This document shows positions 3,893 to 45,796 of a DNA stretch of 64,000 nucleotides, one piece after another (the first letter of the stretch is position 1; each line of letters begins with the position of its first letter). The notes below the pieces were generated by a model that was not told the origin of the DNA, did not search any database, and saw only the letters and a list, made by a program, of their open reading frames with translations. This DNA comes from a virus: the IMG/VR virus record IMGVR_UViG_3300045988_062648, positions 1-64,000 of that record. One strand, written 5' to 3'. A program made the position numbers and the translations under genes.

Positions 3893-4214
3893 AGTTAATG
3901 ATAGTGTGCAGCAATCTCTTCTACGGGGGGCGAGAGCCCAAGATAGTGCTAAAGTAAGTTATGACGATTTACGTATTGTAAATAGCAAACTTATTGAGCT
4001 TGAATATCTTAAAGTTGAGAATAATATACTTAAACAAGTTCATTCTACTGATAGTATTATTATTAAACTTAAAGATAATAATATAGAGCATTATAAAAAT
4101 ATTTACAATACTAAATCTGAACAATATAATAAAGTTAAATTTCAACGTGATATTGCTATAGGTAGTACAGGAGTTAGTATTGTTGCTTTAATATTAATGC
4201 TGTTATTAAAGTAA
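3816..4214 (+). CDS. small signal-peptide/Cys protein overlapping previous gene out of frame (o-spanin-like?)
   Basis: Track start 3792 is TTG; ATG at 3816 gives MQKLLKLKVLIMTALLICS... (basic n-region, hydrophobic core, Cys); overlaps 3590-3892 in another frame like Rz/Rz1; contains one copy of the dispersed motif (3915-3942). Confidence 0.3.
   Translation: MQKLLKLKVLIMTALLICSINLLGSEVNDSVQQSLLRGARAQDSAKVSYDDLRIVNSKLIELEYLKVENNILKQVHSTDSIIIKLKDNNIEHYKNIYNTKSEQYNKVKFQRDIAIGSTGVSIVALILMLLLK
3915..3942 (+). repeat. dispersed motif copy (forward, subtype B): tctcttctacggggggcgagagcccaag
   Basis: translated SLLRGARAQ within 3816-4214; GGGC-GAGA-GCCC hairpin with GNRA-like loop. Confidence 0.75.
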
Positions 4215-6505: not shown

Positions 6506-8938
6506 ATGGCAGGCTTTTTTCCTACTACTTGGGCACATTTCCCCACACAGCGTGTGAGTGGTGCTGAAAAACGTAAAGCTGAATGGTACGCGAATTGTAT
6601 TGATTACGTTATTGCAATGGGTCTTTCTTGTAATGATAGAACAGAGGATGAACTAGAGTTATCTATACTTCGAGGTAATATTCCTGATAGTTTTTATAAA
6701 AAGACTCTTAACCCTTATAATGCTAGTAAAGAGAAGTATACTAGGTTTCCAGCTACAATGCGTAATTATGATATAATGTCTGATATTATTCGACGTTATG
6801 TTAGTGAATATTTTAAAGGTATTCATCAATTTGTTGTTGGTGCAGAAAATCCAGATATAGTTATTAATAAAGATGCTGCACTTAAACAAACTATTATGCA
6901 AGCAGCTGAACAAGCATTTCAACAAGAGTTTCAAAAACGTTATCAACAAATGCTTAATCAAGCTCAACAACAAGGTCAAAACCCAAATCAAGTTGACCCC
7001 AGTCAAGCAATGCCTGATGTTGAAGAGTTTATGAATAAGTTTAATCAAGATTATATTGATAAAGAAAGTAAACAAGGTCAAGATGTACTTAATTATGTTC
7101 GAGCAATGACAGAAGATAATCTTGTATATCTTACTTGTTATTTTCATTTTGTAGCTCTTGGAGAATGTTTTACATATTGTGATGTTAGGGGTAATAAGAT
7201 AGTTAAAGATTATATTCCTGTAACAGAAGCTTATCCTATTCCTAATTCAAACTTCTTCGTAGAAGACCACGATATGTTTGCAAGAAAGATGATGTTAAGC
7301 TATCAACAGATAATAGACATGTTTGATGATTTTCTTGATGAAAAAGATAGGAAATTTCTTGAAACATATTATGCACATCAAAATGCTAATAGTGGTATAA
7401 CACGTCTTTCTTATAATCAATATTTTGAGAATTATCCTGATGTTTGTTCTAAACTTTCTAATGAAGAACGAGACTTATGGAGAAAACAACCTGTAAGTCT
7501 TTATGAAGTAAATGATAATCTTTATGAAGTATGGCACGTCGTATGGAGAGGAGAAGCTAGACGAGGAATACTTACTTATATAAATGAAGTAGGAATTGAA
7601 GCTACTCGTGTAGTAGATGAAGATTATCAGCTTAATAAAGCTGCTGGAGATATTGATATTGAATGGGCTTATGAGCCACAAGTTTATGAAGGCTATCGTA
7701 TTGGTAATCGTTATACAGCTATTTATCCTATTAAAGCTAGACCTATAGCGTTTAATCGTAATGGTAAACTTCCTTATAATGGTATAATGGAAATTCTACC
7801 TTATATGGGCAAGTTTGACATAATAAAGATAGTAACACCATATCAAGTTATGAGAAATATTATCTCGTATCATAGAGAAATGGTGATAGCAAAGAACAAG
7901 ATGTTAATTCTAATGATGCCACAGTCATTAATACAAGATGATTCAGAAGATAAAGTTTATCGTATGGCAGCTGATGGTATTCTTCTTGTTGATGATAGTG
8001 AAGATACTAATAGTCAGAAGATGGCTCAAGTAAGATTACTTAATGCTAATATGGGTCAGTATATAACTGAACTTACTAATCTTATGGAAAGTATCAAACT
8101 AGAAGCTCGTGAACTTGTTGATATGAATGCTCAACGTTATGGCCAAATAGCTCAATCTGCTGGTGCTACAAATACTCAACAAGCTATCAGTCAATCAGCT
8201 ATTGGTTCAGTTATTATAAATCAAATGTTTGACGAGTTCCGTAAACGTGATTATAATAGAGATATTGATTATGCTAAGTTAGCTTATGTTGATGGTCTTG
8301 ATACAGCTTATTGGGATGAAGTTGGAAAACGTCAATTTATTAGTCTTGATGTTAGTAGCTTTATAAACTCTGATTATTCTGTTACTGTTCGTAATGATGC
8401 AAAAGAAGTTGATAAACTTCAACAGCTTCGTCAATGGGCATTTAGTGCAGCACAAAATGGTGACCTTGAAATGGCTATTGCTGCTATTACAGGAGACAAT
8501 GTTGCTCAAATTAAAAACATAGTTAATCGTTTTGCTGATATTAAACGTAAGCATGAAGAAGATATGCAACATATGGAGCAAATGATTAAACAAGAAGAAG
8601 TTGAAAATAAACTTCGTGAGATTGCAGCTAAAGGTGAGCAAGATCGTCTTACTAAAGAATTGCAATATCAGTATGAGCTTCAACTCAAATATATTGATGT
8701 TGATATGTCAATGATTGCATCTACTCCTGATAACTCTGACGATTTAGCACTTAAAGAGCGTATAGCTAATATGACAGAAGAAAGTAAGCGTAGAATAGAA
8801 GATGCAAAACTTAATATTGAACGTCAAAAACTTGTAGCTGACGCTTATAATGCTGCTGCTGAAAGAGAAGTAAAAAGAGAGCAAATGAAGACTGACTTAC
8901 AAATAGCTAAAACTAATAAGAACAGATACGACAAATAG
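6506..8938 (+). CDS. putative portal protein
   Basis: 810 aa, long highly charged helical C-terminus (EEDMQHMEQMIKQEEVENKLREIAAKGEQDRL...) reminiscent of P22-type portal barrel; position between large ATPase-sized gene and capsid genes. Confidence 0.45.
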   Translation: MAGFFPTTWAHFPTQRVSGAEKRKAEWYANCIDYVIAMGLSCNDRTEDELELSILRGNIPDSFYKKTLNPYNASKEKYTRFPATMRNYDIMSDIIRRYVSEYFKGIHQFVVGAENPDIVINKDAALKQTIMQAAEQAFQQEFQKRYQQMLNQAQQQGQNPNQVDPSQAMPDVEEFMNKFNQDYIDKESKQGQDVLNYVRAMTEDNLVYLTCYFHFVALGECFTYCDVRGNKIVKDYIPVTEAYPIPNSNFFVEDHDMFARKMMLSYQQIIDMFDDFLDEKDRKFLETYYAHQNANSGITRLSYNQYFENYPDVCSKLSNEERDLWRKQPVSLYEVNDNLYEVWHVVWRGEARRGILTYINEVGIEATRVVDEDYQLNKAAGDIDIEWAYEPQVYEGYRIGNRYTAIYPIKARPIAFNRNGKLPYNGIMEILPYMGKFDIIKIVTPYQVMRNIISYHREMVIAKNKMLILMMPQSLIQDDSEDKVYRMAADGILLVDDSEDTNSQKMAQVRLLNANMGQYITELTNLMESIKLEARELVDMNAQRYGQIAQSAGATNTQQAISQSAIGSVIINQMFDEFRKRDYNRDIDYAKLAYVDGLDTAYWDEVGKRQFISLDVSSFINSDYSVTVRNDAKEVDKLQQLRQWAFSAAQNGDLEMAIAAITGDNVAQIKNIVNRFADIKRKHEEDMQHMEQMIKQEEVENKLREIAAKGEQDRLTKELQYQYELQLKYIDVDMSMIASTPDNSDDLALKERIANMTEESKRRIEDAKLNIERQKLVADAYNAAAEREVKREQMKTDLQIAKTNKNRYDK

Positions 8939-8969
8939 TTGTTGGCACATCCTTAAAAGTAATTCTGGA

Positions 8970-9004
8970 AGTCCTAGTGCTAGTAATAAGCTAATGCTAG
9001 GACT
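8970..9004 (+). promoter_or_regulatory. hairpin directly after portal-like gene (AGTCCTAG-19 nt-CTAGGACT)
   Basis: 8-bp perfect inverted repeat 32 nt after stop at 8938; no T-tract, so weak terminator/processing candidate. Confidence 0.3.
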
Positions 9005-9042
9005 TAATTATGTACTATGTTATACGTTCTTCTGTATTTTAA

Positions 9043-9120
9043 AATCGTTTCTAAGCGCATCAAATTGTAGCGGCTGATTAACTTATCGGCTTAAAAATTT
9101 GAAGCCAACAGAGCTAAAAT
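9043..9120 (+). repeat. conserved intergenic element copy A (AATCGTTTCTAA...GCTGATTAACTTATCGGCT...CAACAGAGCTAAA)
   Basis: about 80% identical to 60547-60612 and related to 25453-25519 and inverted 21486-21510; contains hairpin GCTGAT-TAACTT-ATCGGC with G-T wobble versus perfect stem in copy B. Confidence 0.6.
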
Positions 9121-9126
9121 AAAATA

Positions 9127-9151
9127 GGTCTACGGCAACGTTTTGATGAAG
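9127..9151 (-). promoter_or_regulatory. TACGGCAAC iteron-like site (GGTCTACGGCAACGTTTTGATGAAG)
   Basis: near-identical to CCTCTACGGCAACATTTTGTTGAAAAG at 63569-63596 upstream of the wHTH gene. Confidence 0.45.
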
Positions 9152-9355
9152 TCTGATATGCTCTAAATACGGTTTTGAATATATCGTTAAGATGATGCAC
9201 TTAATGAACATAATAATGAAGATTACAGTATAGTATTTAATATTAAAATAAATGTTTCGCGTATTGATAAAAAAGAGTTAAATGGTTTTGTTGCTCGACA
9301 TCAAAAAGCTATATTTGCATCAAATATAGTAATGTATAATTAATCATATAAAACT

Positions 9356-10681
9356 ATGGGAGAAAATGAACTTGATTTAGGTTTCCAGCCAACACTTAAT
9401 ATAGGTGGTGGGAACAAAGGAGAAGACAACACTAAGCCAAATGAAGAAATAACACATCTTAATGGTAAAGGTGACCCTACAAATCCTGAAGATGTAACAG
9501 GTAAAGATGGTACTAAACCTGGAGAACAACCTATAATAGAAGATTCTAATAAAGGAGAAGAAGAGAAGAAAGATGGTGTAGAGCCTGCAAACCCTTCTAC
9601 GGGGGGGCTAGAACCCAATTCTCAAATTGAATATGATGGCCAAGTATATACCGTAGATGAAAATGGTAATATAGTTGATGATAAAGGTCAAATATTTAAA
9701 GAAGCTAAAGATGTTGAAGTTTGGCTTAAAGAAAATGAAATAGTTGATGAAACAAAAGAGACAGATGCAAATAAGATTGATATTAAAGCAATACAAGATG
9801 CATTTGGTATAGAAGTAACAGATGAAGATGGTAAACAAGTTGAATTTACTAATGATGCACAAGGTCTTAAATCTTATGTAGATTCTGTTATTGATATAAA
9901 GTCTAAAGATATACAAGAAGCTACTATTAATAGTTTTCTTGAGAATAATCCTCTTGTTGCTGAATTTATTGATTATGTACAAGTTAATAATGGTAGTCCT
10001 GTAGGATTTGGAACAATTCCTGATAGAAGTAAAATTCAACTTAATAAGGATAATGAACAACAGCAAGAGTATATCATACGAATGGCTGCTAAAGAATTTG
10101 GTAATAATAGTCTTAATGATAATTACATTAAATATCTTAAAGACAGCGGAGGTTTGTATGATGAAGCTAAAGCTCAACTTGAAGCTCTTGTAAATAAAGA
10201 TAAACAAGTACGTGAGAATATAGCTAAACAAGCTGAAGCTCAACGTAAACAAGAAGAAGAAGATTTAGTTAATTATTGGAAAAATGTAAATTCTATTATT
10301 GAGAACAGAAACATTGCTGAATATAAACTTCCTGAGAGTTTTACAAAAGAAGTAGATGGTAAGAAAACAATAGTAACACCAAATGACTTCTTTAATTATC
10401 TGACAAGGCGTACAGTTGTTGATGAACAAGGTAATAGAATAACACCTTATCAAAGAGATTTATATGCAATAACCGAAGAGGAAGAACTTAATAAAGACTT
10501 ACTTGATGCTTGGTTAATGTTCACAGGTGGTACATATAAAGATTTAGTAGATATGGCAATTAAAGAAGATAATGTTCGTAAATTGCGTATTAAGTCTAAA
10601 GAACAACGTACTATTAAACCTATTAAGATTGTTAAGAAAGCAAATGGAGGTAAAGTTGATATTAATGATATTGTGTTATAA
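9356..10681 (+). CDS. acidic coiled-coil protein, putative scaffolding protein
   Basis: 441 aa, very acidic N-terminal half (GEDNTKPNEE..., EEEKKDG), helical KAQLEALVNKDKQVRENIAKQAEAQRKQEEE; located between portal and capsid genes; contains dispersed motif copy (9592-9618). Confidence 0.35.
   Translation: MGENELDLGFQPTLNIGGGNKGEDNTKPNEEITHLNGKGDPTNPEDVTGKDGTKPGEQPIIEDSNKGEEEKKDGVEPANPSTGGLEPNSQIEYDGQVYTVDENGNIVDDKGQIFKEAKDVEVWLKENEIVDETKETDANKIDIKAIQDAFGIEVTDEDGKQVEFTNDAQGLKSYVDSVIDIKSKDIQEATINSFLENNPLVAEFIDYVQVNNGSPVGFGTIPDRSKIQLNKDNEQQQEYIIRMAAKEFGNNSLNDNYIKYLKDSGGLYDEAKAQLEALVNKDKQVRENIAKQAEAQRKQEEEDLVNYWKNVNSIIENRNIAEYKLPESFTKEVDGKKTIVTPNDFFNYLTRRTVVDEQGNRITPYQRDLYAITEEEELNKDLLDAWLMFTGGTYKDLVDMAIKEDNVRKLRIKSKEQRTIKPIKIVKKANGGKVDINDIVL
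9592..9618 (+). repeat. dispersed motif copy (forward, variant): cccttctacgggggggctagaacccaa
   Basis: inside scaffold-like CDS (PSTGGLEPN). Confidence 0.65.
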
Positions 10682-15140: not shown

Positions 15141-15177
15141 CTACAACCTCTTCTACGGGGGTTGTAGATTTCAACTT
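15141..15177 (+). repeat. dispersed motif copy (forward, subtype A) embedded in an 8-bp-stem hairpin CTACAACC-tcttctacggg-GGTTGTAG
   Basis: ctacaacctcttctacgggggttgtagatttcaactt, 16 nt after stop of 14238-15125; terminator-like placement but no T-tract. Confidence 0.7.
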
Positions 15178-20741: not shown

Positions 20742-21416
20742 ATGGAAAGAGTAATTTTGCAAGGAATCTACCAAGTGCTAAAAGACATGGTAGAAAAACA
20801 ACAAGAGAATCAAGAAGCTATGATAGCTAAACTTGATGAACTTAAAGTTTCAATAGAAAACATTAAGATAACTGTCGGTTCAATTAATATTAATACTGAT
20901 GAAGTTGAAGCCAAACTTGATACAGTAAATAGTAGTATTAATAGTCTTAAGACTAATATTGATGCAGTTAAAAATTCAGTTAATACAGTTAATACTTCTA
21001 TTACTACAATGGATGCAGTAGTTGATAGTATTAAAACTAATACTGATAATATTAAAACTAATCAGACTAATAATGGTACTAAACTTGATAATATTAAAAC
21101 TTCAGTAGATTCTAATGGTACTAAACTTACAACTATTGATACTGATATTAAAGCTGTAGCTACAGCAGTTAATGCTAATGGAGAAGCTATAATTGATGCT
21201 AAAGTAGATTATACTGAAAAATTTGATAATATCAAAACTAGTGTAGATGCAGTTAATACTAATATACAAGCTGTTAAAACTTCAGTAGATACAGGAGTTA
21301 CAACTATTGGTACTAAAGTAGATGCCATTGGTACTAAAGTAGATAGTGCTAATACTAAACTTGATAGTATTGTAGCAAATACTACTCCAGCAAGTAGTAC
21401 AGAGCCTACTGAATAA
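20742..21416 (+). CDS. tandem-repeat fibrous protein
   Basis: 224 aa built of repeating units such as GTKLDNIKTSVDSNGTKLTTIDTDIKAV / IGTKVDAIGTKVDSANTKLDSI; DNA-level direct repeats. Confidence 0.4.
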   Translation: MERVILQGIYQVLKDMVEKQQENQEAMIAKLDELKVSIENIKITVGSININTDEVEAKLDTVNSSINSLKTNIDAVKNSVNTVNTSITTMDAVVDSIKTNTDNIKTNQTNNGTKLDNIKTSVDSNGTKLTTIDTDIKAVATAVNANGEAIIDAKVDYTEKFDNIKTSVDAVNTNIQAVKTSVDTGVTTIGTKVDAIGTKVDSANTKLDSIVANTTPASSTEPTE

Positions 21417-21424: not shown

Positions 21425-21454
21425 TCTCTTCTACGGGGGTTGTAAATCCCAACT
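21425..21454 (+). repeat. dispersed motif copy (forward, subtype A): tctcttctacgggggttgtaaatcccaact
   Basis: 10 nt after stop of 20742-21416; forms 15-bp inverted repeat with 21571-21596. Confidence 0.75.
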
Positions 21455-21485
21455 CATACTTCGCCAATTTGCCTATTTCTTTTGC

Positions 21486-21510
21486 GTCTGTCGGCTTTAA
21501 TCAGCTCTCG
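21486..21510 (-). repeat. short inverted copy of the conserved intergenic element (GCTGATTAAAGCCGACAGAC on minus strand)
   Basis: reverse complement matches GCTGATTAA...GCC(A/G)ACAGAG blocks of copies at 9071-9115, 25474-25516, 60568-60610. Confidence 0.4.
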
Positions 21511-21570
21511 TGAACAACATATCAGCTAAGTCATGTGAAACGGCTGACGGGCTTTAAAATGGGTCGGTCA

Positions 21571-21596
21571 CTACCACCCCCGTAGAAGAGATGATA
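21571..21596 (-). repeat. dispersed motif copy (reverse): ctaccacccccgtagaagagatgata
   Basis: reverse complement tctcttctacgggggtggtag; inverted partner of 21425-21454. Confidence 0.75.
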
Positions 21597-21628
21597 ACAA
21601 AGTTATTAATCTTAATTCAAATAAACTT

Positions 21629-24600
21629 ATGGATATTAAAACTGATAATATAGATAATATTAAAGCTCTTATGGCTAATATTCTTGATGGTCATAATGGA
21701 GAAAATCTTTATGCTTATCTAGCAAAGTTTAATTCACTTAATGTCGGATATGTAGCTAATGCTAAATCTGCACGTGAAGCTGTACCAGAGATATTTCGTA
21801 AGAATGGTTTATATATTACTTATTATATTAATAATAAACCTACAACTGAAATATTTGTTGGGGATAAAACTGTTGCTGGAAATGAAACTGAATGGGTTAA
21901 AGATGAATATTGGGAATTTAGTGATGGAATAGGTCATGTAGATTCTAATAGTATTACTCTTAATCAACTTAGTAAAGAAGTACTTGATTTAATATGCGCA
22001 AATAATGAAATTAATATAGTTAATTATCCAGATGGAGAAGATTTAACTGAATTTGATGTTTGTGGTGGTAATAGTAAACGAGCAGTTAATGCTTTAAGAT
22101 TTGCGAATAAAGAATATAATCCTGCTAATTTTAGTGGTCTTGGACGAGTTTATCTTCGTAAGAATATAATAGATGATAAGAACATTCTTACACAAGATAT
22201 GATTAATGAAAATAATATTCGTTATATTATTCAATATGCTTATGACTTAAATGATGCTACTATTAATATACCTACAAATTCTGTTCTTGAATTTCAAGGT
22301 GGTAGTTTTACTAATGGTACATTGAATTGTGATGGTACTGTTATAATGACTTATGATAAAGATTGGCTTGATGTTACTCTTAGTGGTACTTATTTCTTCT
22401 TTGGTTGGGCTGATAGTATAGAGCAAGTTGAAATTGTTAATAATTTGACAACTGATGATGCTACTAAAGCTCTTAGTGCAGCTCAAGGTGTAGTTATTAA
22501 GAATTTGCTGGATGATGCTTCTAAAGCTCTTATTGATGCTCAAACTGAAATTAATCAAAAGTTTACTCAAATAGCTGAACAGATACAAAATATTACTGCT
22601 GATATTGATATTCCAACTGATAAACCTGCTAAACCTGGCCTTGGTGATTTATGGTTTAATACTACTAATAAGACTTTGAATTATTGGAATGGTACTGAAT
22701 GGATTGAACTTAATGATTCTTTTGATAGCCAAAAGGTTTCTGCTGATGTAACTGATGTTCAGACTGTTGAAGCTAATGAAGAAGCTGAAGCTACTGCTAA
22801 AATAGTTAATAGTCAAATACAGTTTACATTTAAGATTCCTAAAGGAGCTACAGGTAATACTGGACCTCAAGGAGAAACTGGTCCTCAAGGAGAAATTGGC
22901 CCTGAAGGTCCTCAAGGTCCTCCGGGAAATGATGGTCATGATGGAGAAGATGGTAAGGATGGTGTAAGTCCTACTCTTCCTAATTATAGTATTTATCGTT
23001 ATCGTAAATCTGATAGTAAACCTGCTACTCCAACAGGTACTTCTCAGAATCCATCTGGTTGGACTGATATACCTAATGATGCTGGTAATTGGTGGCAGTG
23101 TGTTGGTGAAGTAAACGGAGCTACTGGAGCTGTTACTCGTTGGGGAGAAGTTCTTCCTCTTAATGGTCGCGATGGTATAGCACAAGACGGTAAATATACT
23201 GAAATGCGTTTTGCTGTTAATACAAGTCGTGTTACTTATCCAACTATTGATAGAAGTGTTCGTACTCCGAGTGGTTGGACTCTTGCAGCTCCTTCTGTTA
23301 GTCAAGGTCAATATCTTTGGATGACAACAGCTATTATTAATCCAAATGATACTCTTAATACTAATTGGAATATTCCTGTTTGTATTAGTGGCCCTACAGG
23401 AGCTAAAGGTGCTACAGGTCCTGCTGGTGATCCTGGTAGTCCTGGTTCTCAAGGTCCTGCTGGTATTCCAGGAGTTAATATGTTAGTTATGTATTGTGTT
23501 GGAACTGATACACATATAGGTGGAACTACTGAAGTTACTAATCATTGGAAAAGTAGCGATGTTTATGTTATTACTGTCCCTTCTTATCAAGGACTTGGAA
23601 CAGGTTGGTATAAAACTATACCTGATTATGACCCAAGTACTCAATATATTTGGTGTACACAAGGTAAACGAGAATATACTTCTAGTACTAAATATACTGA
23701 AACTTGGAATAAACCTTTTAGACTTAATGGTCTTAATGGTCTTAATGGAGAAGACGGAAGTGGCAAACGAGGACAAATAGTTTATCCAGCTGGTATTTAT
23801 GATAATAATACTGCTTATGTTACTGATGAAAATAAAGCTCCTTATGTTCTTGATACTACAGACGGTTATTATTATGTACTTAATGCAATTATGACTTGGA
23901 GAGGTAGTGAACAAGGTAATCGTACTCCTTCTCAAGATTATGCTATTAATAGTGGTAAATATTGGCTTAAGTTTGAAGGCTTTAATGCTATATATGCTAA
24001 AATAGGTATAATTGCTAATGGTCTTGTTGGTAGTGCTGTATTTAATGGAGATTGGATGTTTAGTCAAGCTGGACAAAATTCTTCTGGCGGACCTTCTACT
24101 CAATATGAAAATTTTAATCCAAGCAATCCTTATGGCGGTGCATTTAGACCTAATGTAGCTATTAATCTTAAGACTGGAGAAGTTTATTTTGGTTGTGATA
24201 AAACAAGATTTGGTGCTGATGGCTCTGGTAAATTAGCTAACGGTAATATCAAATGGGATGCTGATGGTAATATTGTTTATAATGGTTTGCTTGCTTCTCT
24301 TAATGTATTAGAAGATACTAATGTTGGTGTAACTTATGCTGATATTACTTTGCCTCATTTATCTGCTCCTGATGTTGATTCTGAATATCAAATGGAATAT
24401 ACTTATGTATTTGGGCCTAAAACTCGTGCTGGTTTAACAAGACGTGTTCAACTTGAAGAACGTAATGATACTTTGTATTATAATGGTGGTACTTTTTCAG
24501 GTTCAGGCGTTCTTAATATTGAAGATAAAATTCCATCTGCTTATGGTTTTATTAAGTTTATTTGTCGTATTGATGGACAAGATAATACTTGGTATATGGT

Positions 24601-24661
24601 TGTAGTTAAAGATTGTAATCTTAAATTTTATGGAACAGATAATAATGCAATTAGTAGATAA
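21629..24661 (+). CDS. tail fibre protein with collagen-like Gly-X-Y repeats
   Basis: 1010 aa; GNTGPQGETGPQGEIGPEGPQGPPGNDGHDGEDGKDG and GPTGAKGATGPAGDPGSPGSQGPAGIPG triple-helix-type repeats; N-proximal module shared with 16512-17648. Confidence 0.55.
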   Translation: MDIKTDNIDNIKALMANILDGHNGENLYAYLAKFNSLNVGYVANAKSAREAVPEIFRKNGLYITYYINNKPTTEIFVGDKTVAGNETEWVKDEYWEFSDGIGHVDSNSITLNQLSKEVLDLICANNEINIVNYPDGEDLTEFDVCGGNSKRAVNALRFANKEYNPANFSGLGRVYLRKNIIDDKNILTQDMINENNIRYIIQYAYDLNDATINIPTNSVLEFQGGSFTNGTLNCDGTVIMTYDKDWLDVTLSGTYFFFGWADSIEQVEIVNNLTTDDATKALSAAQGVVIKNLLDDASKALIDAQTEINQKFTQIAEQIQNITADIDIPTDKPAKPGLGDLWFNTTNKTLNYWNGTEWIELNDSFDSQKVSADVTDVQTVEANEEAEATAKIVNSQIQFTFKIPKGATGNTGPQGETGPQGEIGPEGPQGPPGNDGHDGEDGKDGVSPTLPNYSIYRYRKSDSKPATPTGTSQNPSGWTDIPNDAGNWWQCVGEVNGATGAVTRWGEVLPLNGRDGIAQDGKYTEMRFAVNTSRVTYPTIDRSVRTPSGWTLAAPSVSQGQYLWMTTAIINPNDTLNTNWNIPVCISGPTGAKGATGPAGDPGSPGSQGPAGIPGVNMLVMYCVGTDTHIGGTTEVTNHWKSSDVYVITVPSYQGLGTGWYKTIPDYDPSTQYIWCTQGKREYTSSTKYTETWNKPFRLNGLNGLNGEDGSGKRGQIVYPAGIYDNNTAYVTDENKAPYVLDTTDGYYYVLNAIMTWRGSEQGNRTPSQDYAINSGKYWLKFEGFNAIYAKIGIIANGLVGSAVFNGDWMFSQAGQNSSGGPSTQYENFNPSNPYGGAFRPNVAINLKTGEVYFGCDKTRFGADGSGKLANGNIKWDADGNIVYNGLLASLNVLEDTNVGVTYADITLPHLSAPDVDSEYQMEYTYVFGPKTRAGLTRRVQLEERNDTLYYNGGTFSGSGVLNIEDKIPSAYGFIKFICRIDGQDNTWYMVVVKDCNLKFYGTDNNAISR

Positions 24662-25179: not shown

Positions 25180-25417
25180 GTTATATAAGATAGAACTATA
25201 TTTATTGAAGATAATACCAATGTTATTAGCATTGATAAACTTCATAAATATAGTTCTTTCTTTTAATGGTATAGATATACCTCTTTTAAGTTATATTGGT
25301 GGTATATCTTTTATACCTCTTATATTTCTTTATATAAGTAGTTATGTATTTAAATTTTGTGAATATCATAGAATGTTTCTACATTATATTGTTATATGTA
25401 ATGCTATAGATGTTTAA
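25157..25417 (+). CDS. small membrane protein
   Basis: 86 aa with two hydrophobic helices (IIPMLLALINFINIVL, ISFIPLIFLYISSYVF). Confidence 0.3.
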   Translation: MEVKPSVKLYKIELYLLKIIPMLLALINFINIVLSFNGIDIPLLSYIGGISFIPLIFLYISSYVFKFCEYHRMFLHYIVICNAIDV

Positions 25418-25452
25418 TTAAGTAATAATAATTCGAGCTAATTTCAGCCCTT

Positions 25453-25519
25453 ACAATCGCTCGTAACTCGTTGGCTGATAGTTACTTCACACCCGTTATT
25501 TCGAGCCGACAGAGGGCAC
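25453..25519 (+). repeat. conserved intergenic element copy C (diverged): ACAATCGCTCGTAA...GGCTGATAGTTAC...GAGCCGACAGAGGGCAC
   Basis: shares AATCG(Y)T, GCTGAT(T/A)A and (A/G)ACAGAG blocks, in same order, with copies A and B. Confidence 0.45.
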
Positions 25520-25647
25520 GTATGAGCCTCCTGCGAGGTTCTTAGCATTTGGTTTATTCAGTCAAAAACACTATATTTGCAATGTTGGAAACGTGCTGCA
25601 CTTGATATTGTAGTAAGCCGTGGCACTAATATTGAGATAGATAGTGT

Positions 25648-25675
25648 AGCAATACAACCCCCGTAGAGAAAGGTC
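25648..25675 (-). repeat. dispersed motif copy (reverse, slightly degenerate): tagcaatacaacccccgtagagaaaggt
   Basis: reverse complement cctttctctacgggggttgtattgcta; partner of 25781-25812. Confidence 0.7.
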
Positions 25676-25780
25676 GTTAATGTGTGTTTCTGTTAAGATT
25701 GCATCTAATTTAGTTTGTTTCATAGTTAAAAGGTTAGTAATAAAGTAGGTGAAGCTAATAGTGATATTCGCTAATCCATC

Positions 25781-25812
25781 AACTCTTCTACGGGGGTTGT
25801 AGTTTCCAACTT
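25781..25812 (+). repeat. dispersed motif copy (forward, subtype A): aactcttctacgggggttgtagtttccaactt
   Basis: perfect core plus extended TTGTAGnnTCCAACTT tail; 40 nt upstream of ATG 25854. Confidence 0.8.
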
Positions 25813-25853
25813 CTTTTGATAGTAATAATAGTAAAAATAATAAACTTAAATAT

Positions 25854-26564
25854 ATGGCTTCAGTTGCACAACTTGTTAGTGAACTAGCGCATAGTGTAGG
25901 TATGCCTAATAACAGAGCTTTACGAGAGAATCTTAAAAGTCTAGTTATTCATACTCGTAATGAAGTTATAAGACATAGTTATGAGAATCATGGTTATGTT
26001 GACAAAGGTCTAGTTCAAAGATATAAAGTTAGTCTTATAGATGTTCAAGATGGTGATATAAAAGAATTAGAAGGAATTAGTTTTGAAGATTTAGAACTTG
26101 ATGATTTAGAACTTACTAAAATTAAACGTACTGAGCAAAGAGTTCCAAAACCTGTTCGTCTGACTAATAATTTACCATTTGACCGTGTTAGCTCTGTTGG
26201 TTTTAAAACTAATAGAGCTTTTCCTTTTATAAAAGAGTCTTCTGCAAAGTTTAGAAAATCTGTTCCAGGTCTTTGTGGTATGCCTTGTTATGATTATATA
26301 AATGGTTATATTTATATATTTCCAGTTAGCAATAAACCATTTGATTTACAAAAGATTGTAATCGAGAGTGCTTTTGAGCATCCAACTCAAATAGAAATTG
26401 CTAATGGAGAAGTAGACGATATTGAAGGAACACTTGACCTTAATGAATGGGTTTTATCAGAAGATATGATAGGACAAATTAAAGAGATTATATATAAACG
26501 TGATTTACTATCTACTGTAAGACAAACGGATGAAGTTCCGAATACAGTTAAATTTAATGGTTAA
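25854..26564 (+). CDS. hypothetical virion/tail-module protein
   Basis: 236-aa ORF. Confidence 0.4.
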   Translation: MASVAQLVSELAHSVGMPNNRALRENLKSLVIHTRNEVIRHSYENHGYVDKGLVQRYKVSLIDVQDGDIKELEGISFEDLELDDLELTKIKRTEQRVPKPVRLTNNLPFDRVSSVGFKTNRAFPFIKESSAKFRKSVPGLCGMPCYDYINGYIYIFPVSNKPFDLQKIVIESAFEHPTQIEIANGEVDDIEGTLDLNEWVLSEDMIGQIKEIIYKRDLLSTVRQTDEVPNTVKFNG

Positions 26565-32209: not shown

Positions 32210-35200
32210 ATGAGTAATCGTAGAAGTCTTAAATGTGGTGGTAGACAAAAACTTGCTTGTGGTGGTAGACGTAAAGCATCGACTGGACTAGCAATAGGAT
32301 TGTCAGCTCTTAATAGTTTAGGAAGTATGATTGGTGGAATAGTATCTGCTAATGCTCAACGCAAAGCTATACAAGAATATAATGACCAACAAAGAGTAAA
32401 TAATCAAATAGCAAGTTCTAATAATTTAGCTGCTTCTGTAAATAGAAATATAGCTAGCAATAGAAATCTAAATAATTTTAATTTAGATGAATATATTGTT
32501 TATAAATACGGAGGCAAAACTCGTCCTAAGTGTAGTTTTGGAACTGTATTCGCTAATATAACTAAAGGTATTAACACATTTGCTCCTTTAGCAACTTCTT
32601 TAGCTGCTGCTGGAAGTACTGCCCCTACAAGTATTGGTACGTCTCTTCAACAAGATCTTATAAATAATGCTACTGATGCTAATATATTACGTCAAGCTGC
32701 CACACAAACATTTAAATGTGGTGGTCGTAAGAAAGCTCGTAGCGGTATAGCTAGAAGACTTGAAAGTCCTTATATTACAGATGGAGGAGTAGCTATTCCT
32801 CTTGGCAACGGATTATCTCTTCTACGGGGGGCGACACATGAGGACATCAATGAAACAGGTCAGACCGGTATTGGTATTAATACAGGTAAAGGAGAGATAG
32901 AAGCTGAAAATGGAGAAGTAATACAAAATACTGGTAAAGAACTTCGTATTTTTAGTGACCAACCAATATTTAATGGTATTAGCCCTGCTGATGCAGTTCA
33001 AGCTGGTTATAATCCTAATCGAGTATTTAATGCTCAAGAAAGAGTTAAAAGCAGACTTGGTATTAAAAATCCTAGTAAGAAAGCTCCTTGGGGAGATAAT
33101 GTAGATATACAAGAGTCAGATGCTACTAGAACTTATGCTACTCCATTTAATGAACGTGGACGTAGAACTTCTTATGCTGATAGTTATCAAGGATGGTTTG
33201 ATCCAGTTAGTTATCTTACTGGTAGTGCATTTACTATTGCAGATTATTATTCTACTAGACGTAGAGGTGAAACTCCTGAAGAATGGGCTGAGCGTCAAGC
33301 AGTAGAAGCACAATATCGTTCTACAGGTTATGCACCTAATGTTGGCTTTCGGGGAGGAATGGGTAGAAATGCAGTACAACGTGCAGCTACTACTAGATAT
33401 GCTAATCAAGTTAGAGGACAACAAATTAGACAAACAGGTAGATATAATAGAAATCAATTACTTTCTCAACAACTTGGAGAAGCAGCTCAAGCTAGAACTG
33501 CACAAGGTGCTAGACAAATTTCTAATAAAATACGAGTTAAAAGAGCAGGACAAGAATGGACTAATGCTGCTGAAACTCCTTATGCTCCTTATGCTGGTGC
33601 TGCTGAGAGCCGTGGTGTTGCTTATCCGTATGAGAATGCAGTTGGTACATTAAATCTACCTAATGCTAGAGCTGAACGTATTAGAACTTCTATTAATAGA
33701 AGAATACAAAATGCTAAAAATAGAATAAATCAACGTAGACAAAATAATACAAATAACAATAATACTAATAACACAGAAACTAATAATTCTAATAATCAAA
33801 ATGAAAGTTGGATTAGAAGAACTAGTCGTAAAGCAGCAAATACAGCTAAGACTTATGGTAAATATGGAGCTATGGGAGTTGGAGTAGGTGGACTTATTAC
33901 AGGTGCTATAGCTCTTGGAAATAGAGAAAGTATTAATACAGCAGGTACTAATAGAAATTCTAATAATCAACAAGCTGCTAGACGTAATACTTCTTCTCAG
34001 CAAAATAATAATCAACAAGCTGCTAAACCTACTAGAAGTCTTAAAGATATAGCTCGAGAAACAAATGCTGTTGTTAATCAAGACTTTTTATCTCTTAATC
34101 AACGTAATTTAATATATGGTGCTATTAATGTAGGAAATAAAAGAAATAATAATTCTAAAAAATCTCGTGGTAATAGAACTACTAGAGCTAACAGAAATAC
34201 ATCTAAACGAAATACAACTTCACGTAGAAGTCTTAAAGATATTGCTCGTTTTACTATTCCTAATTATATTCCTACTCCTACTAGAACTACTATAAGACGT
34301 GCTCAATCTGTTTATGATTTAGGTTTAACTAATGAACAAATAGATAGACTTAAAGAAGAAATTACTCAAATTCCATCTAGACCTAGAAAACGTTTTAGTG
34401 GACGTAGCACTACAACCCCCGTAGAAAGGATTGGTAGACCTAGATTTGTTATTGGAGGTTCTAATGCTTATGATTATACTAATCAATTTCTTAATAGTAT
34501 AGCTCCTGCTAGAGTAGTGGATAATAGACCTATTTGGCAAAGAAGTAATTTTAGTCTTCCACAAGTAGCTAATCAAATTACAGGACAATCTGCAAACAAT
34601 ACATCAGTAACATCTACAAATACAAATACTTCACCTACATTTAATGTTAGAAGTAATAATCTTGGAATGGATATAACTGGTAGAGATTGGATTGGTTTGG
34701 GTACTGATATACTTGGTAGTCTTGGTGTTGGTTTATTTAATGCTAATTCTTTAAAAGGGTTAGATGTTAATTATACTATTCCGCAATATGTAGATGAAAC
34801 TCCTGTAGCATTTGATACTACTTGGCATAATGGAGCACAGCGTGCTAATGTAGAACGTAATCGTATTAATGCTCGTAATATAATTGGACGTAATACAGCT
34901 TCAGCTAATACAGCGGTTCAACGTATGCAACAAAGTGATACTGACGCTATGATGCAACAGAATGTTCTTTGGGACGAAAAAGCTAATAAAGAAGCTGAAC
35001 TTAGAAATACTGCTGCTGCAAATGAACAACAAGTTCGTGCTAGAAATGCTGCTGCTAGAAATGCTTATTATCAGAATGTTGCACAAATACGAAATGCTGA
35101 ACAAGATGCTAGAAATAATATTAGACTTGCACAAGCTAATGCGATAAGTGGAAGTCTTGCAGGTTTAGGTCAAGCTGCATCTAACTTCTTAACTTCTGCT

Positions 35201-36739: not shown

Positions 36740-38677
36740 ATGTTACCATTTAACCAAATAGATAGAAGTAAAATTGAACAATATAGAGATAATTTTGATT
36801 ATAATGGTCTAGCAGATTATCTCTCACAATTTTATGTAGAAGATGCACAAAGACAAAAAGAATATTTAGATTATATTCGTCAATATAGAAGTCAAGGTAA
36901 TAAATTCAAAGGAATAATGGATAGAGCTAATGATGACCAAAAGCAAGCTATTCAATTTCAAATGGGTTTACAAAATAATAGACTACCTAAAACTTTTATT
37001 AATAGTCTAGGTCAAGAACAAGAGAATAGATTTACTAAAGATTATGTTAGTAAACTAAATAATATGGGAGGTGAAGATAGTACTACTCTTGAGTTTATGC
37101 TTGAGGGTAAGACTGTTGAAACTAAAGGTTTATTTGGTATTAATTGGTGGAAAGGTAATGACATTCAATATAAAGATAGTGGATTTGATTTATTTAGTAA
37201 AGGTACAGGATATACAGAACAAGACCTTATGAATATGGGAGTACAAGTTACTCACAAAGATGGTCAAACTATTCTTACTGTGGCTAAAGATAATCCTAAT
37301 ATTGCTAATATTTTTATGGGTATGCAATACGTTAATACTAATAGAAGTACAGACGATATTAGAAATCCTATGGATGCTAATCAAGAAGGAGAAGCTAGAT
37401 ATAAAGTTCGTGGTCTTGATGCAGATGGTAACCCAGTTCAAGTTGGAGCTTCAATAGATTTTACTCCAGATAATACTATAGCAGCTACAAGAAATTCTGA
37501 TAGTATTCCAGGTTTTCTTTATAATACTGTAGTTGGTACAGGTGAAGCAATTGGTAGAACACTACGACAAGTAGCTGGTGGTATTGGAGACATATTTAGT
37601 TCTAATCAAAGAGATTGGGAAGAAGATCAATTTAATAATCCAAAGAATATTTACACATACGATACTAATACTAATCCATATACTACACTTCGTGAAGCTC
37701 AAAGTATTTATAATAATTTTATGAATTCTGATGTTGATAATACTCAAGTATCTTATGAAATAACTGGTTTAGCTGTTAATGGAGCTGCTAGAGCACAATT
37801 AGAACAACGAAGACAAGCTGGTCTTATTAGTAATGAAGATTATCAAAAAGCTCTTAATAACCTTAATGATAGTTATAAATTAGCTCTTAATCAGTCTCTT
37901 CATAATTATAGAGTATGGTCTAATATAGATAATGACGATAGTGATGACCAAGCACTTTATGAACTCAATACAGAACAAAGAGTAGATGCAGCAGAACAAT
38001 TACATCTTGATATTAATCGTGATGATGCTGTATTTATGCACGCAATGATGGGCAATAAAGTAGGTACAATGATTGTTATTCCTGGTCAAAAGAATAAAGA
38101 TGGAACAGTTAAAGAAAATACTGAACGTCGTTATTTTATTGAAGACTTTATGAAAGATGAAGCAGAAGCTGCATTTAGACGAGATACTAAAACTCGTGCT
38201 CAAATGGAACTTTCAGATATGCAAACATATAAATACAATTATGATATACCTGAAGTTGGAACTATTAAAAATGTAAATGGAGCTAGTGCAGTTCTTGAAC
38301 ATCAAGATGGAAGTGAACAACTTATAGATAGACAAACAGCTCTTGATTATCTTAATAGAGCTATGATATATCAAGACGCAATAGACATGGCTAATCAAAA
38401 CTATTGGTACGATAATGGTGTTAGCAGAGATTATACTAATCTTAAAAATGATGTTAATACTTGGTCGCAACTTAGTATGGCTGAAATATATCCTACAGCA
38501 TGGCAAAGATATATAGAAGCATTACAAAGAGCTGGAGTTAGAACACCAAATCTTGATGATAATACTCCACTTGATGAACAAGGAGAAAATGATAGACTTT
38601 ATCTTAGAACTCTTAAAAATCAAATGGCAGCTTATATTCTTCGTTCTGTAGGTTATAACTTTAATAATGTTGAATAA
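36740..38677 (+). CDS. hypothetical virion protein
   Basis: 645-aa ORF; its TAA stop overlaps the ATG of the next giant ORF (TAATG). Confidence 0.4.
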   Translation: MLPFNQIDRSKIEQYRDNFDYNGLADYLSQFYVEDAQRQKEYLDYIRQYRSQGNKFKGIMDRANDDQKQAIQFQMGLQNNRLPKTFINSLGQEQENRFTKDYVSKLNNMGGEDSTTLEFMLEGKTVETKGLFGINWWKGNDIQYKDSGFDLFSKGTGYTEQDLMNMGVQVTHKDGQTILTVAKDNPNIANIFMGMQYVNTNRSTDDIRNPMDANQEGEARYKVRGLDADGNPVQVGASIDFTPDNTIAATRNSDSIPGFLYNTVVGTGEAIGRTLRQVAGGIGDIFSSNQRDWEEDQFNNPKNIYTYDTNTNPYTTLREAQSIYNNFMNSDVDNTQVSYEITGLAVNGAARAQLEQRRQAGLISNEDYQKALNNLNDSYKLALNQSLHNYRVWSNIDNDDSDDQALYELNTEQRVDAAEQLHLDINRDDAVFMHAMMGNKVGTMIVIPGQKNKDGTVKENTERRYFIEDFMKDEAEAAFRRDTKTRAQMELSDMQTYKYNYDIPEVGTIKNVNGASAVLEHQDGSEQLIDRQTALDYLNRAMIYQDAIDMANQNYWYDNGVSRDYTNLKNDVNTWSQLSMAEIYPTAWQRYIEALQRAGVRTPNLDDNTPLDEQGENDRLYLRTLKNQMAAYILRSVGYNFNNVE

Positions 38678-41600
38678 TGAATACTGAACTTATATTTTCA
38701 CAAGGTGGTGTAGAAGTTCCTAATCCAGCTTATAATTCTCGTAGTAAAAAACGAGGAGTTTCTCCTACTATAATAGTTCCTGATGCTTCTCAAGCAAGTT
38801 CTATGGCAGATATTGCTTATAGAACTAATCCTGCTCTTTATGGTCAGTATGATTATGCTGATGTAAAAAAGTATTATGGTGAAGGTTTAATGCCTAATAA
38901 AATATCGCCAAATCTAGATGTAGAGCTTGCAGAAGCACAAAGTGGTATAAAAAAGTTTGGTAATGCTTTAGCACAAACACTTGTATCAGAAATAGCTTTA
39001 GGCACTGTAATAGGTATAACAGATTTACTTGATGTAGTAGGAAATGCTATAAGTATGAATACTAATAATGATTATCAAAATCCTATTAGTAGAACTCTTA
39101 CTGAATGGCAAGAAAAATTTAGAAATGAAGTTGCTCCTATTTATACAGACCCAACTAAAAATATAGCTAACGGTGGTTTACTTGATATGGGTTGGTGGGC
39201 TAGTAATATTCCAAGTATTGCTAGTTCACTTACTTTGCTTATTCCATCAACAGGTGTAACAAAAGGACTTTCAGCACTTTCTAAATCTACTAATATAGGT
39301 GCTTATACTAGAACTGCCGTTAGAGCTGCAACTAAAAAACTTGGTAATAAAAGTTTATATAGAGCGGCTAATCGTCCATCTACTATTACAGCTTGGAATA
39401 GAGGAATAGAATTAGGTATTAATGCTGGACTTCAACGTACAATGGAAAACTATCAAGAAGCTAGACAAGTTTATAATGATAGTTTAGAAGATAGTATTAA
39501 TACTCTTCAAAATATGTCTCCCGAAGATTATCAGAATATGCTTCAACGTAATGCTGATATGTTTGAAGGAGTCGATACAAGTAATATACAAGAAGTAGCT
39601 AAAGCTATTGCTCGTAGAGCTTCTGATAGAACATTTGCTATGGACTTTGCTAATATTGGTTTTGACGTTATGCAACTTTATGCTCTTAGAAATGTTTTTG
39701 GCAATAACAGATTAGCTAATGTTGGTAGAGCTTCTGCTCGTAGAGCAAATAGACTTAGTATTAAATATGCAGGTAAAAGTCAAGCTGAAATAGATAAACT
39801 TGAAGCAGCAAGACCTTGGAGAGAAAGAACTTTAGATAATATAAAAGATTATGCTATAGGTAGCGGTTATGCTATTAAAGCTCAACTTAGTGAAGGTGTT
39901 GAAGAAGCTGTTAACTATATTGCTCAAGAAGAAGGTATGAGTCTAGGTCGAACTATTCTTGGTAAAGAGAATCCAAGTAGTTTTGATTATAGACTTAAAC
40001 AATACATGTTTGCTCCTCAACTTTGGGAAAGTGCATTTTGGGGTACACTTGGTGGAGTAACATTTCAAGCTGCTGGTAGTGGTTTAATGCGAGTAGCAAA
40101 TACTATTAAAAAAGGAACAGAGGTTGACCCTATTACAGGAGAACGTAGACAGAATGTTGCTTGGGCTGGTCTTAGTATGCTTCCTGAAGTAGAAAGACGA
40201 GTTAAAGATATTGAATCTCGTAATATTAAAATGGGACAACTTGCAGAACTTATTAAGACTATTGATAAAGACCATAAAAATCCTTTTCAAAGAAATGCTG
40301 ATGGAAGTTTTGTTGATATACCTAATAAGATTGATCAAGATGCAGCTAAAGAACTAGCTATTAATGAATTTGTTACTGATATTGCTTTACAAGCTAATAA
40401 CAATGGTAATTATGAAGCTACAAGAGAATATCTTGCTGACGATAACGTTAGACAAGCTATGGTTCAAGCTGGTATAGTAGATGAAGCTAGTTCTAAAGAA
40501 TGGCAACAAAGTGTTCTTAGAAAGTATGACCAAGTTAAAGAACAATATGAAAATGAGTTGTTTAAACTAGATGATTTAGCAGCTACTAGTAACGTTAAAG
40601 GAAGAGTTCCTATTGAATTTCTACAGAATGCTGCAACATTTAATGTTCAAACTAAACTTAATATTGCTAATTTAAGGTCTCAACAAAGTGCTTATACAGA
40701 GCAATACAATAAAGCTAAAGCTGATGCTATAGAAAATGGTAAACTAGATGCTACTTATGATTATGATTCTATTATAAAGCTGTCCACTATTGTTAGTGGA
40801 CTTAATGCTTTATATCAACAAAGAAAAGAAATACAAGATGATATAAAACAAAATGGTGCTACTGTTGCTAAACAAATAAGTCTTGATGAAATTAATAAAC
40901 GTATAACTAAACTTCAAAAAGACTTTTATATAGATAATAGTACTAATCAACTTGTATCTCTTCTTGCTGGTCTTAGTTCTATTTATAATAGTAGAGCTAG
41001 AAACGAAGAAATAGATAAAAATCTAGAAAAAGCTCTTAATGATGCTTTACAAAATAATAAGTTTGGTGGTATAGAAACTTTGCTAGGTCTTGAGCCTGAT
41101 ACTATAACAGTATCAGAAGAAGAACATAAAAATATAGTTAATGCTTATAATAAATTTAATAAAGAATTTATTAATAGAACAGAGGGCAAACAAGGTATTA
41201 ATCAAATTGGTAAACAAAATGTAGAAGCACTTTCTAATGCTATTGCTCTTGGTTATACTATAGCTAATCAACAATCTCAAGTTATAGATACTCAATCTGA
41301 TTTAGATTATTATCTTAATATGATGAACAATAGTATGGATGAAGCTAGAAGAAATGCTATTGAAGAATCATATAATACTATAAGAGAACTTAATAAGAAA
41401 TATGGTCGTAGAAGTATTGAAGAAGCTCTAGCTCTTGCTTATCAAGGAAAATCTTCTTTAGAAGCTCTTGATGATTATGAAGAAGGAGATAGAAATAATC
41501 TTAATAGAGCTATTAAAATTCTTAATCTTACTAGTGCGCCTAACCGAATACTTTATGATGATATTCAAGCACTACTTGATATAGAGGATAAACTTAGTGC

Positions 41601-45738: not shown

Positions 45739-45796
45739 AATACGTCCACTTTTAATTTTGAACCGCTTAAAATCGAATTTAAAATATATAATAACT

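Follow-up and report, generated by a model that had tools for sequence, protein, structure and literature searches.

What is the function of a perfect inverted repeat that encloses a short, GC-richer segment of non-coding DNA immediately ahead of a phage tail fibre gene? This question is raised by a locus at positions 21425 to 21591 of a stretch of viral DNA of 64,000 nucleotides (nt), corresponding to positions 1 to 64,000 of IMG/VR record IMGVR_UViG_3300045988_062648 and referred to here, at its full length, as the window. As judged from its sequence, the phage is crAss-like and belongs to the family Intestiviridae, with the Obtuvirinae as its closest relatives: its structural genes share 65-77% nucleotide identity with those of the uncultured phage cr271_1 (Intestiviridae, Obtuvirinae), and their alignment to p-crAssphage is more distant. 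Phages of the crAss-like group are the most abundant viruses of the human gut, and to our knowledge almost nothing is known about the punctuation and regulation of their long operons. An earlier note on the locus had proposed an invertible promoter-type switch; its alternatives were an RNase III processing site formed by a long RNA stem and the gene of a small structured RNA. Here, we describe a comparative analysis of the locus and of the dispersed repeat from which its arms are built. The model that we tentatively favour is that of a conserved, single-copy non-coding RNA module that heads the fibre cassette and may serve as a processing or stability site.

The 167-nt element and its conservation

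The genes on either side are those that the earlier note had described. A 224-residue coiled-coil protein is encoded upstream (20742 to 21416, + strand), with its stop codon 9 nt before the left arm, and a 1010-residue tail fibre with collagen and phage-fibre repeats is encoded downstream (21629 to 24661, + strand); the gap between this stop codon and the fibre start is 212 nt. Within the gap lies the 16-bp perfect inverted repeat that had been reported, with TCTCTTCTACGGGGGT (21425-21440) on its left and the exact reverse complement, ACCCCCGTAGAAGAGA (21576-21591), on its right, and the arms can be extended to 33 nt (21425-21457 and 21559-21591) at 79% complementarity. The enclosed segment is indeed GC-richer (0.43-0.47 over 100-nt intervals, against 0.22-0.33 in the flanks and a window mean of 0.3045), but it measures 135 bp rather than the proposed length of about 120 bp. 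The suggestion that it contains an inverted short copy of a shared intergenic element was not borne out; instead, both arms are themselves copies of such an element, because their 15-nt core, TCTCTTCTACGGGGG, recurs 17 times in the window. The left arm (21425-21457, + strand) is a forward copy of this motif, in which the core is followed by the lineage-specific extension TTGTAAATCCCAACTCAT to give a 33-nt unit, and the right arm (21559-21591, - strand) is the same unit inverted, reading TCTCTTCTACGGGGGTGGTAGTGACCGACCCAT on the - strand. The whole element, arms and interior together (21425-21591, + strand), is non-coding and is followed by an AT-rich leader (21592-21628, + strand) that extends to the fibre start codon.

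Relatives of the element were found in ENA and Logan assemblies via homologues of the upstream protein. They comprise, with the window (identical to L132), eight distinct versions: L133 (identical to L134 and L135), L136, L137 (identical to L138), L139, L140, L143 and L144 are the other seven. In all eight, which derive from 11 contigs and about 10 samples, the element, arms included, has a length of exactly 167 nt, lacks any insertion or deletion and shows 81-93% identity. In the seven relatives the element is 86-93% identical; identity over the 45-nt AT-rich leader is 87-93% in six of them and 69% in the seventh, L133. L136 and L144, which carry an unrelated gene downstream, fall within these ranges. 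The 200 nt upstream of the element are 61-70% identical in the relatives, which is the noise level for this composition, and the upstream neighbours vary among lineages, being either the homologue of the 224-residue protein or an extra gene of 161 or 165 residues. The left arm is the exact left boundary of the conserved block and thus marks where the conserved head of a cassette begins, in a module whose genes are exchanged. Two of the relatives retain remnants of a fibre gene directly behind the element. In L144 (925-1000) the fibre start is reduced to an ATG, eight codons and a stop, followed by a different gene (MEQ...), and in L136 (4258-4330) the ATG of the remnant is mutated to ATA, again followed by a different gene (MEQ...). 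We take these remnants to be the scar of a cassette replacement behind the conserved element.

The element is present once per genome. A covariance model of it retrieves one full copy per genome and detects no paralog of the interior in the window, cr271_1, p-crAssphage or the more distant relative L116; the interior likewise has no matches in IMG/VR, in JGI metagenomes or in 185,579 species genomes. Neither strand contains a conserved open reading frame (ORF), the longest being 7-8 codons and not conserved. No relevant Rfam family was recovered for the element at the gathering threshold or at E <= 10: matches in its vicinity score 11-14 bits against thresholds of 37-68, and in the window a tRNA-Gln alone passes. 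This tRNA-Gln, at 60292, is also the only gene found by tRNA and tmRNA scans of the window. A scan of IMG/VR for inverted pairs of the motif returned matches restricted to pairs in apparently coding sequence. An analogous hairpin of 178 nt (z = -6.2) is present in the corresponding module of L116 (IMG/VR contig 3300045988_061905) at 1600-1777, one gene upstream of the fibre gene; it is closed by that genome's own version of the motif, ATCCCTCTACGGGG...CCCCGTAGGGAGAT, has an unrelated interior and is the single instance of its type found in IMG/VR.

These data bear directly on the proposed switch, in which a recombinase would flip the 135-bp segment and thereby turn the fibre gene on or off. 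Such a switch would account for the placement of inverted repeats around a short stretch of non-coding DNA immediately ahead of a gene for a surface structure, and it would be in keeping with the Bacteroidales hosts, which use invertible promoter switches themselves. We nevertheless regard it as highly improbable. The interior has one and the same orientation in all eight versions, as represented in the assembled contigs. Nor are the arms private to the locus: the 15-mer also lies in essential ORFs and in both orientations, so that a recombinase acting on the arms would scramble the genome. The complete genomes of cr271_1, p-crAssphage and crAss002 have no annotated invertase or integrase, and the genes neighbouring the locus have no recombinase match, in searches confined to the genes of the phages and not of the host. 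The element contains no match to a sigma-70 promoter and, by eye, no TTTG...TAnnTTTG, Bacteroides- and phage-specific promoters lying outside the scan. Furthermore, sequence change in the element is directional with respect to strand (see below). The junctions of the inverted state of 21441-21575 would read TCTCTTCTACGGGGGTGGTAGTGACC and GAGTTGGGATTTACAACCCCCGTAGAAGAGA. Even as a mere intergenic hairpin, the locus would be a useful annotation, and not a phase-variation switch.

Predicted fold and strand of the element

When folded as RNA, the whole element is more stable than its shuffled counterparts on both strands (z = -5.8 for the + strand and -5.5 for the - strand), and most of this difference comes from the arms. 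In the predicted + strand structure, the two motif copies pair to form an 18-bp closing helix, P1 (21427-21444 with 21572-21589), which is followed by a second helix, P2 (21449-21457 with 21559-21567). Within the interior, a third helix, P3, is formed by GCGUCUGUCGGCUU at 21486-21499 and a 3' strand at 21536-21552, and it carries a distal arm, P4 and P5 (21504-21531), with the nearly invariant sequence GUGAACAAYAUAUCAGCUAAG. The RNAalifold consensus has 50 pairs and -50.5 kcal/mol on the + strand, and 42 pairs and -42.3 kcal/mol on the - strand.

The substitutions that distinguish the eight versions favour the sense strand. In a comparison that used the sense-derived structure, and is biased toward sense to that extent, 96.5% of the alignment cells pair in the sense structure as opposed to 85.3% in its mirrored antisense counterpart, with values of 98% and 78% for P2 and of 94% and 59% for P3. 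Change is restricted to transitions in 15 of 18 variable interior columns that are paired and in 14 of 28 that are unpaired (Fisher P = 0.02). A replacement of a 5-nt block in the 3' strand of P3 retains four of its five pairs through G-U wobbles and one compensatory change. Taken together, the comparative data lean to a sense-strand RNA. The alternatives in the earlier note, a processing stem or a small RNA with structure, accord far better with these data than the switch does, the element being conserved, of fixed length, non-coding and subject to changes that preserve sense-strand pairing; folding and covariance across relatives, the check that had been recommended, gave a consensus fold and no significantly covarying pairs.

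The model that we favour rests on these predictions. Rightward late transcription of the structural genes would read through the element, whose two motif copies would then pair into the 18-bp P1 helix, stacked on P2. P1 and P2 would close an interior of about 100 nt, which would fold into the P3-P5 arm with its invariant loops. Lying between cistrons, such a duplex would most plausibly act after transcription, as a target of a double-strand-specific nuclease of the host RNase III type, a stable end structure, or both, so that the upstream message and the message of the fibre cassette would be separated and stabilised, with the interior possibly released as a small RNA. An insulating, processing or stabilising role is proposed because a perfect duplex of such length is a natural substrate of double-strand-specific RNases: in silico, the 18 bp of P1 and the pairs of P2 beyond a 4x4 internal loop amount to roughly two turns of uninterrupted double-stranded RNA, as is expected of an RNase III substrate. 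The element, a candidate new phage RNA, sits exactly where fibre cassettes, and with them host range, are swapped between relatives. Because of its place at this exchange site, it could account for the acquisition of new fibre genes without loss of correct expression.

Several observations, in addition to the bias of the strand comparison, weigh against this model. Across the genomes, motif copies are not strictly sense-oriented (those within coding sequence are 34 sense and 26 antisense), which argues that the motif may be read on DNA. Scans for sigma-70 promoters and intrinsic terminators found nothing in the element, and no U-tract follows the helix. Taken alone, the interior gains little stability over shuffled sequences (mean z of -1.2 for the + strand and -1.9 for the - strand). 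Covariation in the strict sense falls short of significance: it consists of one double-change pair, and most shuffles reach the observed scores. The five changes in P1 are one-sided and uncompensated, so that the arms are possibly conserved as copies of the motif and not as a helix; by inspection, distant forward-reverse pairs of the motif show no compensation between partners either.

Part of the interior may have a partial counterpart elsewhere in the window. The word ATCAGCTAAG, for which the earlier note had reported a recurrence at 60587, does have a second copy, located at 60579-60588; two copies in the window, against 0.22 expected, are weakly unusual, this number being reached in 1 of 100 shuffles. 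Its recurrence stems from pieces that the element has in common with a region at 60533-60635 on the - strand, namely AATTTGCC..TTTCCTTTG..TCTGT and ATCAGCT, and this region gives a weak covariance-model match (14.5 bits, of borderline significance) to element positions 34-134. It contains a hairpin, AGCTGATTAATTTATCAGCT, at 60566-60585, 3' of a small - strand ORF. The region lies in an 850-nt, mostly non-coding stretch (60046-60898) between the ends of the + strand and - strand gene blocks, which also holds the tRNA-Gln(UUG) gene (60292-60363) and, on the - strand at about 60632-60826, an ORF that may encode a small membrane protein. ATCAGCT was also considered as an operator-like iteron and was ruled out, because with 21 copies against 12 expected it is not over-represented in that manner.

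The dispersed motif and alternative explanations

The arms of the element belong to the top repeated word of the window. With up to three mismatches allowed, TCTCTTCTACGGGGG is found 17 times, whereas 0.25 copies are expected and none of 100 shuffles has more than 2, and it is the most frequent GC-containing 11-mer. Eight of the 17 copies are intergenic, though only about 5% of the window is (P = 9e-7), and the spacing of all copies is more regular than random, with a mean of 4.9 kb and a coefficient of variation (CV) of 0.38 (P = 0.0002). The full 33-nt unit of the arms is also found at 15147, 25782, 44495(-), 60061(-) and 63903. Close inverted pairs number three by strict matching and five when partial copies are included, against 0.47 expected (simulated probability of at least four, 0.0009). 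Intergenic copies often form hairpins as inverted pairs, as at 565 in the window, at 3519 and 68764/68799 in cr271_1 and at 22899/22926 in p-crAssphage. The remaining nine copies lie within ORFs, where forward copies are read in all three frames (SLLRGA, PSTGG and LLYGGRE) and reverse copies read TTPVE or PPVED; because all frames are represented, the conserved object appears to be the nucleic acid and not a peptide.

Along the window, the motif begins at 565, where a forward and a partial inverted copy, TCTTCTACG...CGTAGAAGA, enclose a 21-nt loop in intergenic DNA (565-606, + strand). A copy at 3915-3929 (+) lies within an ORF in the frame SLLRGA, and one at 9591-9605 (+) lies, in the frame PSTGG, within a gene of 441 residues upstream of the major capsid gene, at the junction of the disordered N-terminus and the conserved domain of the protein; in cr271_1 the site is syntenic and falls at this junction as well. 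The copy at 15147-15161 (+) is intergenic, 23 nt ahead of the next start codon. The two arms of the element, starting at 21425 and 21577(-), are followed by a divergent pair (25653-25796) before the gene for tail ring protein 2, in which a partial copy in reverse (25653-25675) precedes a forward one (25782-25796). A single ORF of 1079 residues contains a forward copy at 32816-32830 (+) and a reverse copy, which reads TTTPVE, at 34416-34430 (-). Another divergent pair (42080-42205; reverse at 42080, forward at 42191) and a reverse copy at 44495-44509 (-) lie within an ORF of 2353 residues, and the adjacent ORF of 4780 residues has a forward copy at 48982-48996 (+, frame LLYGGRE), a reverse copy at 52653-52667 (-) and, 15 nt past its stop codon, a further reverse copy at 60061-60075 (-), which is syntenic in cr271_1 (66209). 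Finally, a divergent pair (63760-63917; reverse at 63760, forward at 63903) occupies an intergenic gap of a - strand operon; it was considered as a divergent promoter region and this was ruled out, both flanking genes being on the - strand.

Both the position and the orientation of these copies are retained in relatives. The two giant ORFs (38677-45738, 2353 residues, and 45704-60046, 4780 residues) are counterparts of the RNA polymerase-like virion proteins of crAss-like phages. Their forward/reverse pairs 42191/44495 and 48982/52653 match 47764/50248 and 55541/59062 in cr271_1 and correspond to 47838/50152 and 53876/58946 in crAss002, with order and orientation kept. Long-range RNA pairing between these distant forward and reverse copies was considered and rejected by inspection, as deviations are uncompensated between partners. 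At syntenic sites the motif is kept while the flanks diverge with insertions and deletions, and several blastn homology blocks begin at motif copies. The edges of such blocks (8938-9590; 3763, 9590, 15132, 25814 and 32717) fall repeatedly within about 150 nt of a motif copy. This arrangement suggests that the motif marks borders of exchangeable or fast-evolving segments.

Each lineage of the family has its own version of the motif. In cr271_1, TCTCTTCTACGGGGG is followed by a different 3' flank, AGCT, and has 17 copies in 92.8 kb; p-crAssphage has 31 copies of the version CCATCCTCYACGGGGRG and crAss002 has 27 of CTCCTYTAYGGGGGA, and DAC15 (Steigviridae) has none. The copies are spaced more evenly than expected at random in each of the four Intestiviridae genomes compared, namely the window, cr271_1, p-crAssphage and crAss002 (CV 0.38-0.67; P = 0.0002-0.028), and their orientation alternates beyond random expectation in p-crAssphage (z = 2.2) and crAss002 (z = 2.8). 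Across lineages the G-run is fixed and the pyrimidine half drifts between C and T. In every lineage the forward strand of the motif folds as a small hairpin of pyrimidine run and G-run (-3 to -7 kcal/mol), and for the reverse strand folding is in most cases weaker or absent (0 to -3.2 kcal/mol); the exception is a p-crAssphage variant, CCACGGGGAG, whose reverse strand folds better (-7.3 against -4.6 kcal/mol). In the limited library of literature that we searched, no description of the motif strings or of such a crAss motif was found. A transcription study of crAss phages describes sigma-70-like middle and late promoters, and early promoters without a motif.

From these features one may construct a wider, and more doubtful, proposal: that Intestiviridae possess a punctuation system, and that the 167-nt element is a new structured RNA closed by two of its signals. 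The signal would be 15-18 nt long, composed of a pyrimidine run, TAY and a G-run, with 17-31 copies per genome at a spacing of 3.6-5.5 kb. It would be enriched between genes and tolerated in any frame within them, and its position and orientation would be kept across subfamilies while its sequence co-evolves genome-wide with a putative phage-encoded reader. The element itself would mark the recombination-prone head of the host-range (fibre) cassette. If the motif is a real signal, it offers a handle on its reader, which might act in transcription, RNA processing, replication or packaging, and its sequence would also be a simple marker by which to recognise the family and its sublineages.

An RNA is not the only form in which the motif could be read. 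It might be a duplex-DNA recognition site for a phage factor, such as a regulator, a polymerase cofactor, or an architectural or nicking protein, with the hairpin incidental and the locus consisting of two convergent sites around conserved regulatory DNA at the head of the fibre cassette. That all copies in a genome share the lineage version, as in co-evolution with a trans-acting factor, fits such a site, as do the presence of both orientations with its near balance within coding sequence, the alternation in p-crAssphage and crAss002, the uncompensated changes in the arms, and an interior that has long invariant blocks and folds weakly alone. Considered apart from this locus, the motif favours a DNA site by its even spacing, its mixed orientation and its co-evolution throughout the genome. 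At the locus, however, interior substitutions preserve sense pairing over that of the mirrored antisense strand and paired columns are biased toward transitions; the C/T drift and the forward-strand hairpin of every lineage mostly point to a single-stranded or RNA form, and no candidate binding protein was identified. On balance, we consider the DNA-site explanation, the main rival of the RNA module, somewhat unlikely. It is unlikely, too, that the element is a gene encoding a small RNA that acts in trans, for instance during host takeover or in counter-defence, with P1 as its processing or closing stem; such an RNA would be cut out of the late transcript or would start at its own promoter, one that escaped recognition. 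Fixed length, the invariant predicted loops GUGAACAAYAUAUCAGCUAAG and GGGCUUUAAAAU, a single copy per genome, conservation independent of the downstream gene, and a closing stem like the processing stems that flank stable RNAs would all suit such a gene. Against it stand the lack of an Rfam match at E = 10 and of any promoter or terminator signal in the scans, and the narrow lineage distribution, with no matches in IMG/VR, the JGI metagenomes or the species genomes; moreover, the same conserved AT-rich leader always follows the element, which suggests action in cis.

Two further explanations treat the arms as the ends of a mobile element or as decoys. A terminal inverted repeat of 16-33 bp around a GC-richer core of about 135 bp is what a miniature inverted-repeat transposable element of the Correia type would present if it had inserted between the two tail genes, and the left arm as the exact edge of a conserved block, like the frequent start or stop of homology blocks at motif copies, could be viewed in the same light. 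We consider this very unlikely, since the interior is present once per genome, with module and orientation always the same; the flanks (...ATTCGT and TGATAA...) contain no target-site duplication; close relatives yielded no pair of empty and filled sites; the related genomes have no annotated transposase; and solo copies of the arm in genes that are syntenic across subfamilies indicate retention rather than recent insertion. Least probable of all is that motif copies are solitary mimics of repeats from clustered regularly interspaced short palindromic repeat (CRISPR) arrays, acting as RNA anti-CRISPR decoys. This idea derives from the copy at 15147, TCTAC-GGGGGTT-GTAGAT, which as RNA (UCUAC...GUAGAU) resembles the 5' handle of a Cas12a repeat. 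GTAGAT is present in 1 of the 17 copies, however, the conserved half of the motif is the 5' half, and other lineages have different 3' flanks; the 18-mer TCTTCTACGGGGGTTGTA has a single occurrence in the 185,579 species genomes and nowhere forms an array, and gene-internal copies in all frames are not expected of decoys. A host-derived RNA or repeat was also considered as the source and was rejected, an interior 21-mer having no match and the motif 18-mer one match in the same genomes. The processing or stability module thus remains the explanation that we tentatively favour for the locus.

Related repeat systems and minor features

Each family of known repeats with which we compared the locus fails at least one defining feature here. 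Correia or NEMIS elements of Neisseria and the repetitive extragenic palindromic (REP) sequences and BIMEs of enterobacteria are dispersed repeats whose inverted copies form long intergenic hairpins; Correia units are 100-160 nt long with 26-bp inverted ends, and their hairpins are cut by RNase III and alter mRNA stability. The present element is likewise built of inverted copies of a short dispersed repeat that give an intergenic hairpin. Unlike those families, it has arms that alone are repeated and an interior that is unique, and about half of the copies of its repeat lie within genes, a distribution at odds with the strictly extragenic placement of REP sequences and BIMEs; no target duplication or transposase was found, and the genome is that of a phage and not a bacterial chromosome. 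DNA uptake sequences (DUS) and uptake signal sequences (USS) of Neisseria and Haemophilus, like Chi, are motifs of 10-15 nt that occur on both strands, evenly spaced and in several coding frames, and inverted pairs of DUS or USS after genes often double as hairpins. The crAss motif resembles them in its genome-wide over-representation, its use of several frames and both strands, its regular spacing and its inverted pairs. It differs in that no uptake or RecBCD-type machinery is implicated, in being longer, specific to a phage lineage and absent from bacterial genomes (apart from the single 18-mer match given above), and in the conservation of its orientation at syntenic sites.

The predicted long duplex between cistrons of a polycistronic transcript is shared with the RNase III sites of phage T7 and with the processing stems of rRNA operons, where stem ends that are stable remain after cutting and the RNA between them can be set free. 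The sites of T7 form locally, as hairpins about 60 nt in length marked by characteristic internal loops, unlike the predicted 18-bp perfect helix that is formed here by a genome-wide repeat around a conserved 100-nt interior, and cleavage of the latter is predicted by analogy. Stoperators, the sites of the L5 repressor in cluster A mycobacteriophages, are asymmetric sites of 13-15 bp with 20-30 copies per genome, most of them in short intergenic gaps and some within genes; their sequence is specific to the lineage and co-evolves with a phage factor. The present motif is also an asymmetric site with tens of copies and a lineage-specific sequence. Stoperators, however, are strongly co-oriented with transcription, occur in temperate phages and have a known repressor, unlike a motif of mixed or alternating orientation in a lytic phage for which no cognate protein is known. 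The PeSL (promoter-early stem-loop) cassettes of T4-type phages are similar in that repeated regulatory stem-loops lie at the edges of variable gene cassettes, in coincidence with recombination junctions. PeSLs contain a recognisable early promoter; in the present element no promoter was recognised, the element is single-copy, and the arms alone are repeated.

Motif copies in other genomes have features of their own. In p-crAssphage (6020, 28075, 28171, 44951, 93665 and 95863) and crAss002 (4208, 47838, 86210 and 89646), GC-rich mini-hairpin runs of the GCGAAGC, GCGGAGC or GCGTAGC type directly follow the motif, mostly at intergenic copies, and the lineage of the window is without them. In ten IMG/VR contigs (L122-L131), forward...reverse motif pairs lie 146-167 nt apart in what is apparently coding sequence, and inverted pairs are thus not limited to non-coding DNA. 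At eight of these loci, of the Carjivirus type, the pairs flank low-complexity linkers rich in Thr, Ala, Glu and Pro (e.g. ...SSTGG...TPPVED...), and L125 and L130 are of a different type, with an AT-rich interior.

A final observation concerns the window itself. The gap before the tail ring protein 2 gene, at 25417-25854, is unusually long (437 nt) and includes a GC-rich stretch at 25430-25680. It contains no ORF and gives no folding signal on either strand (z of about 0), and a second structured element at 25425-25685 was ruled out for lack of such a signal. The gap may represent a decayed gene or regulatory DNA.

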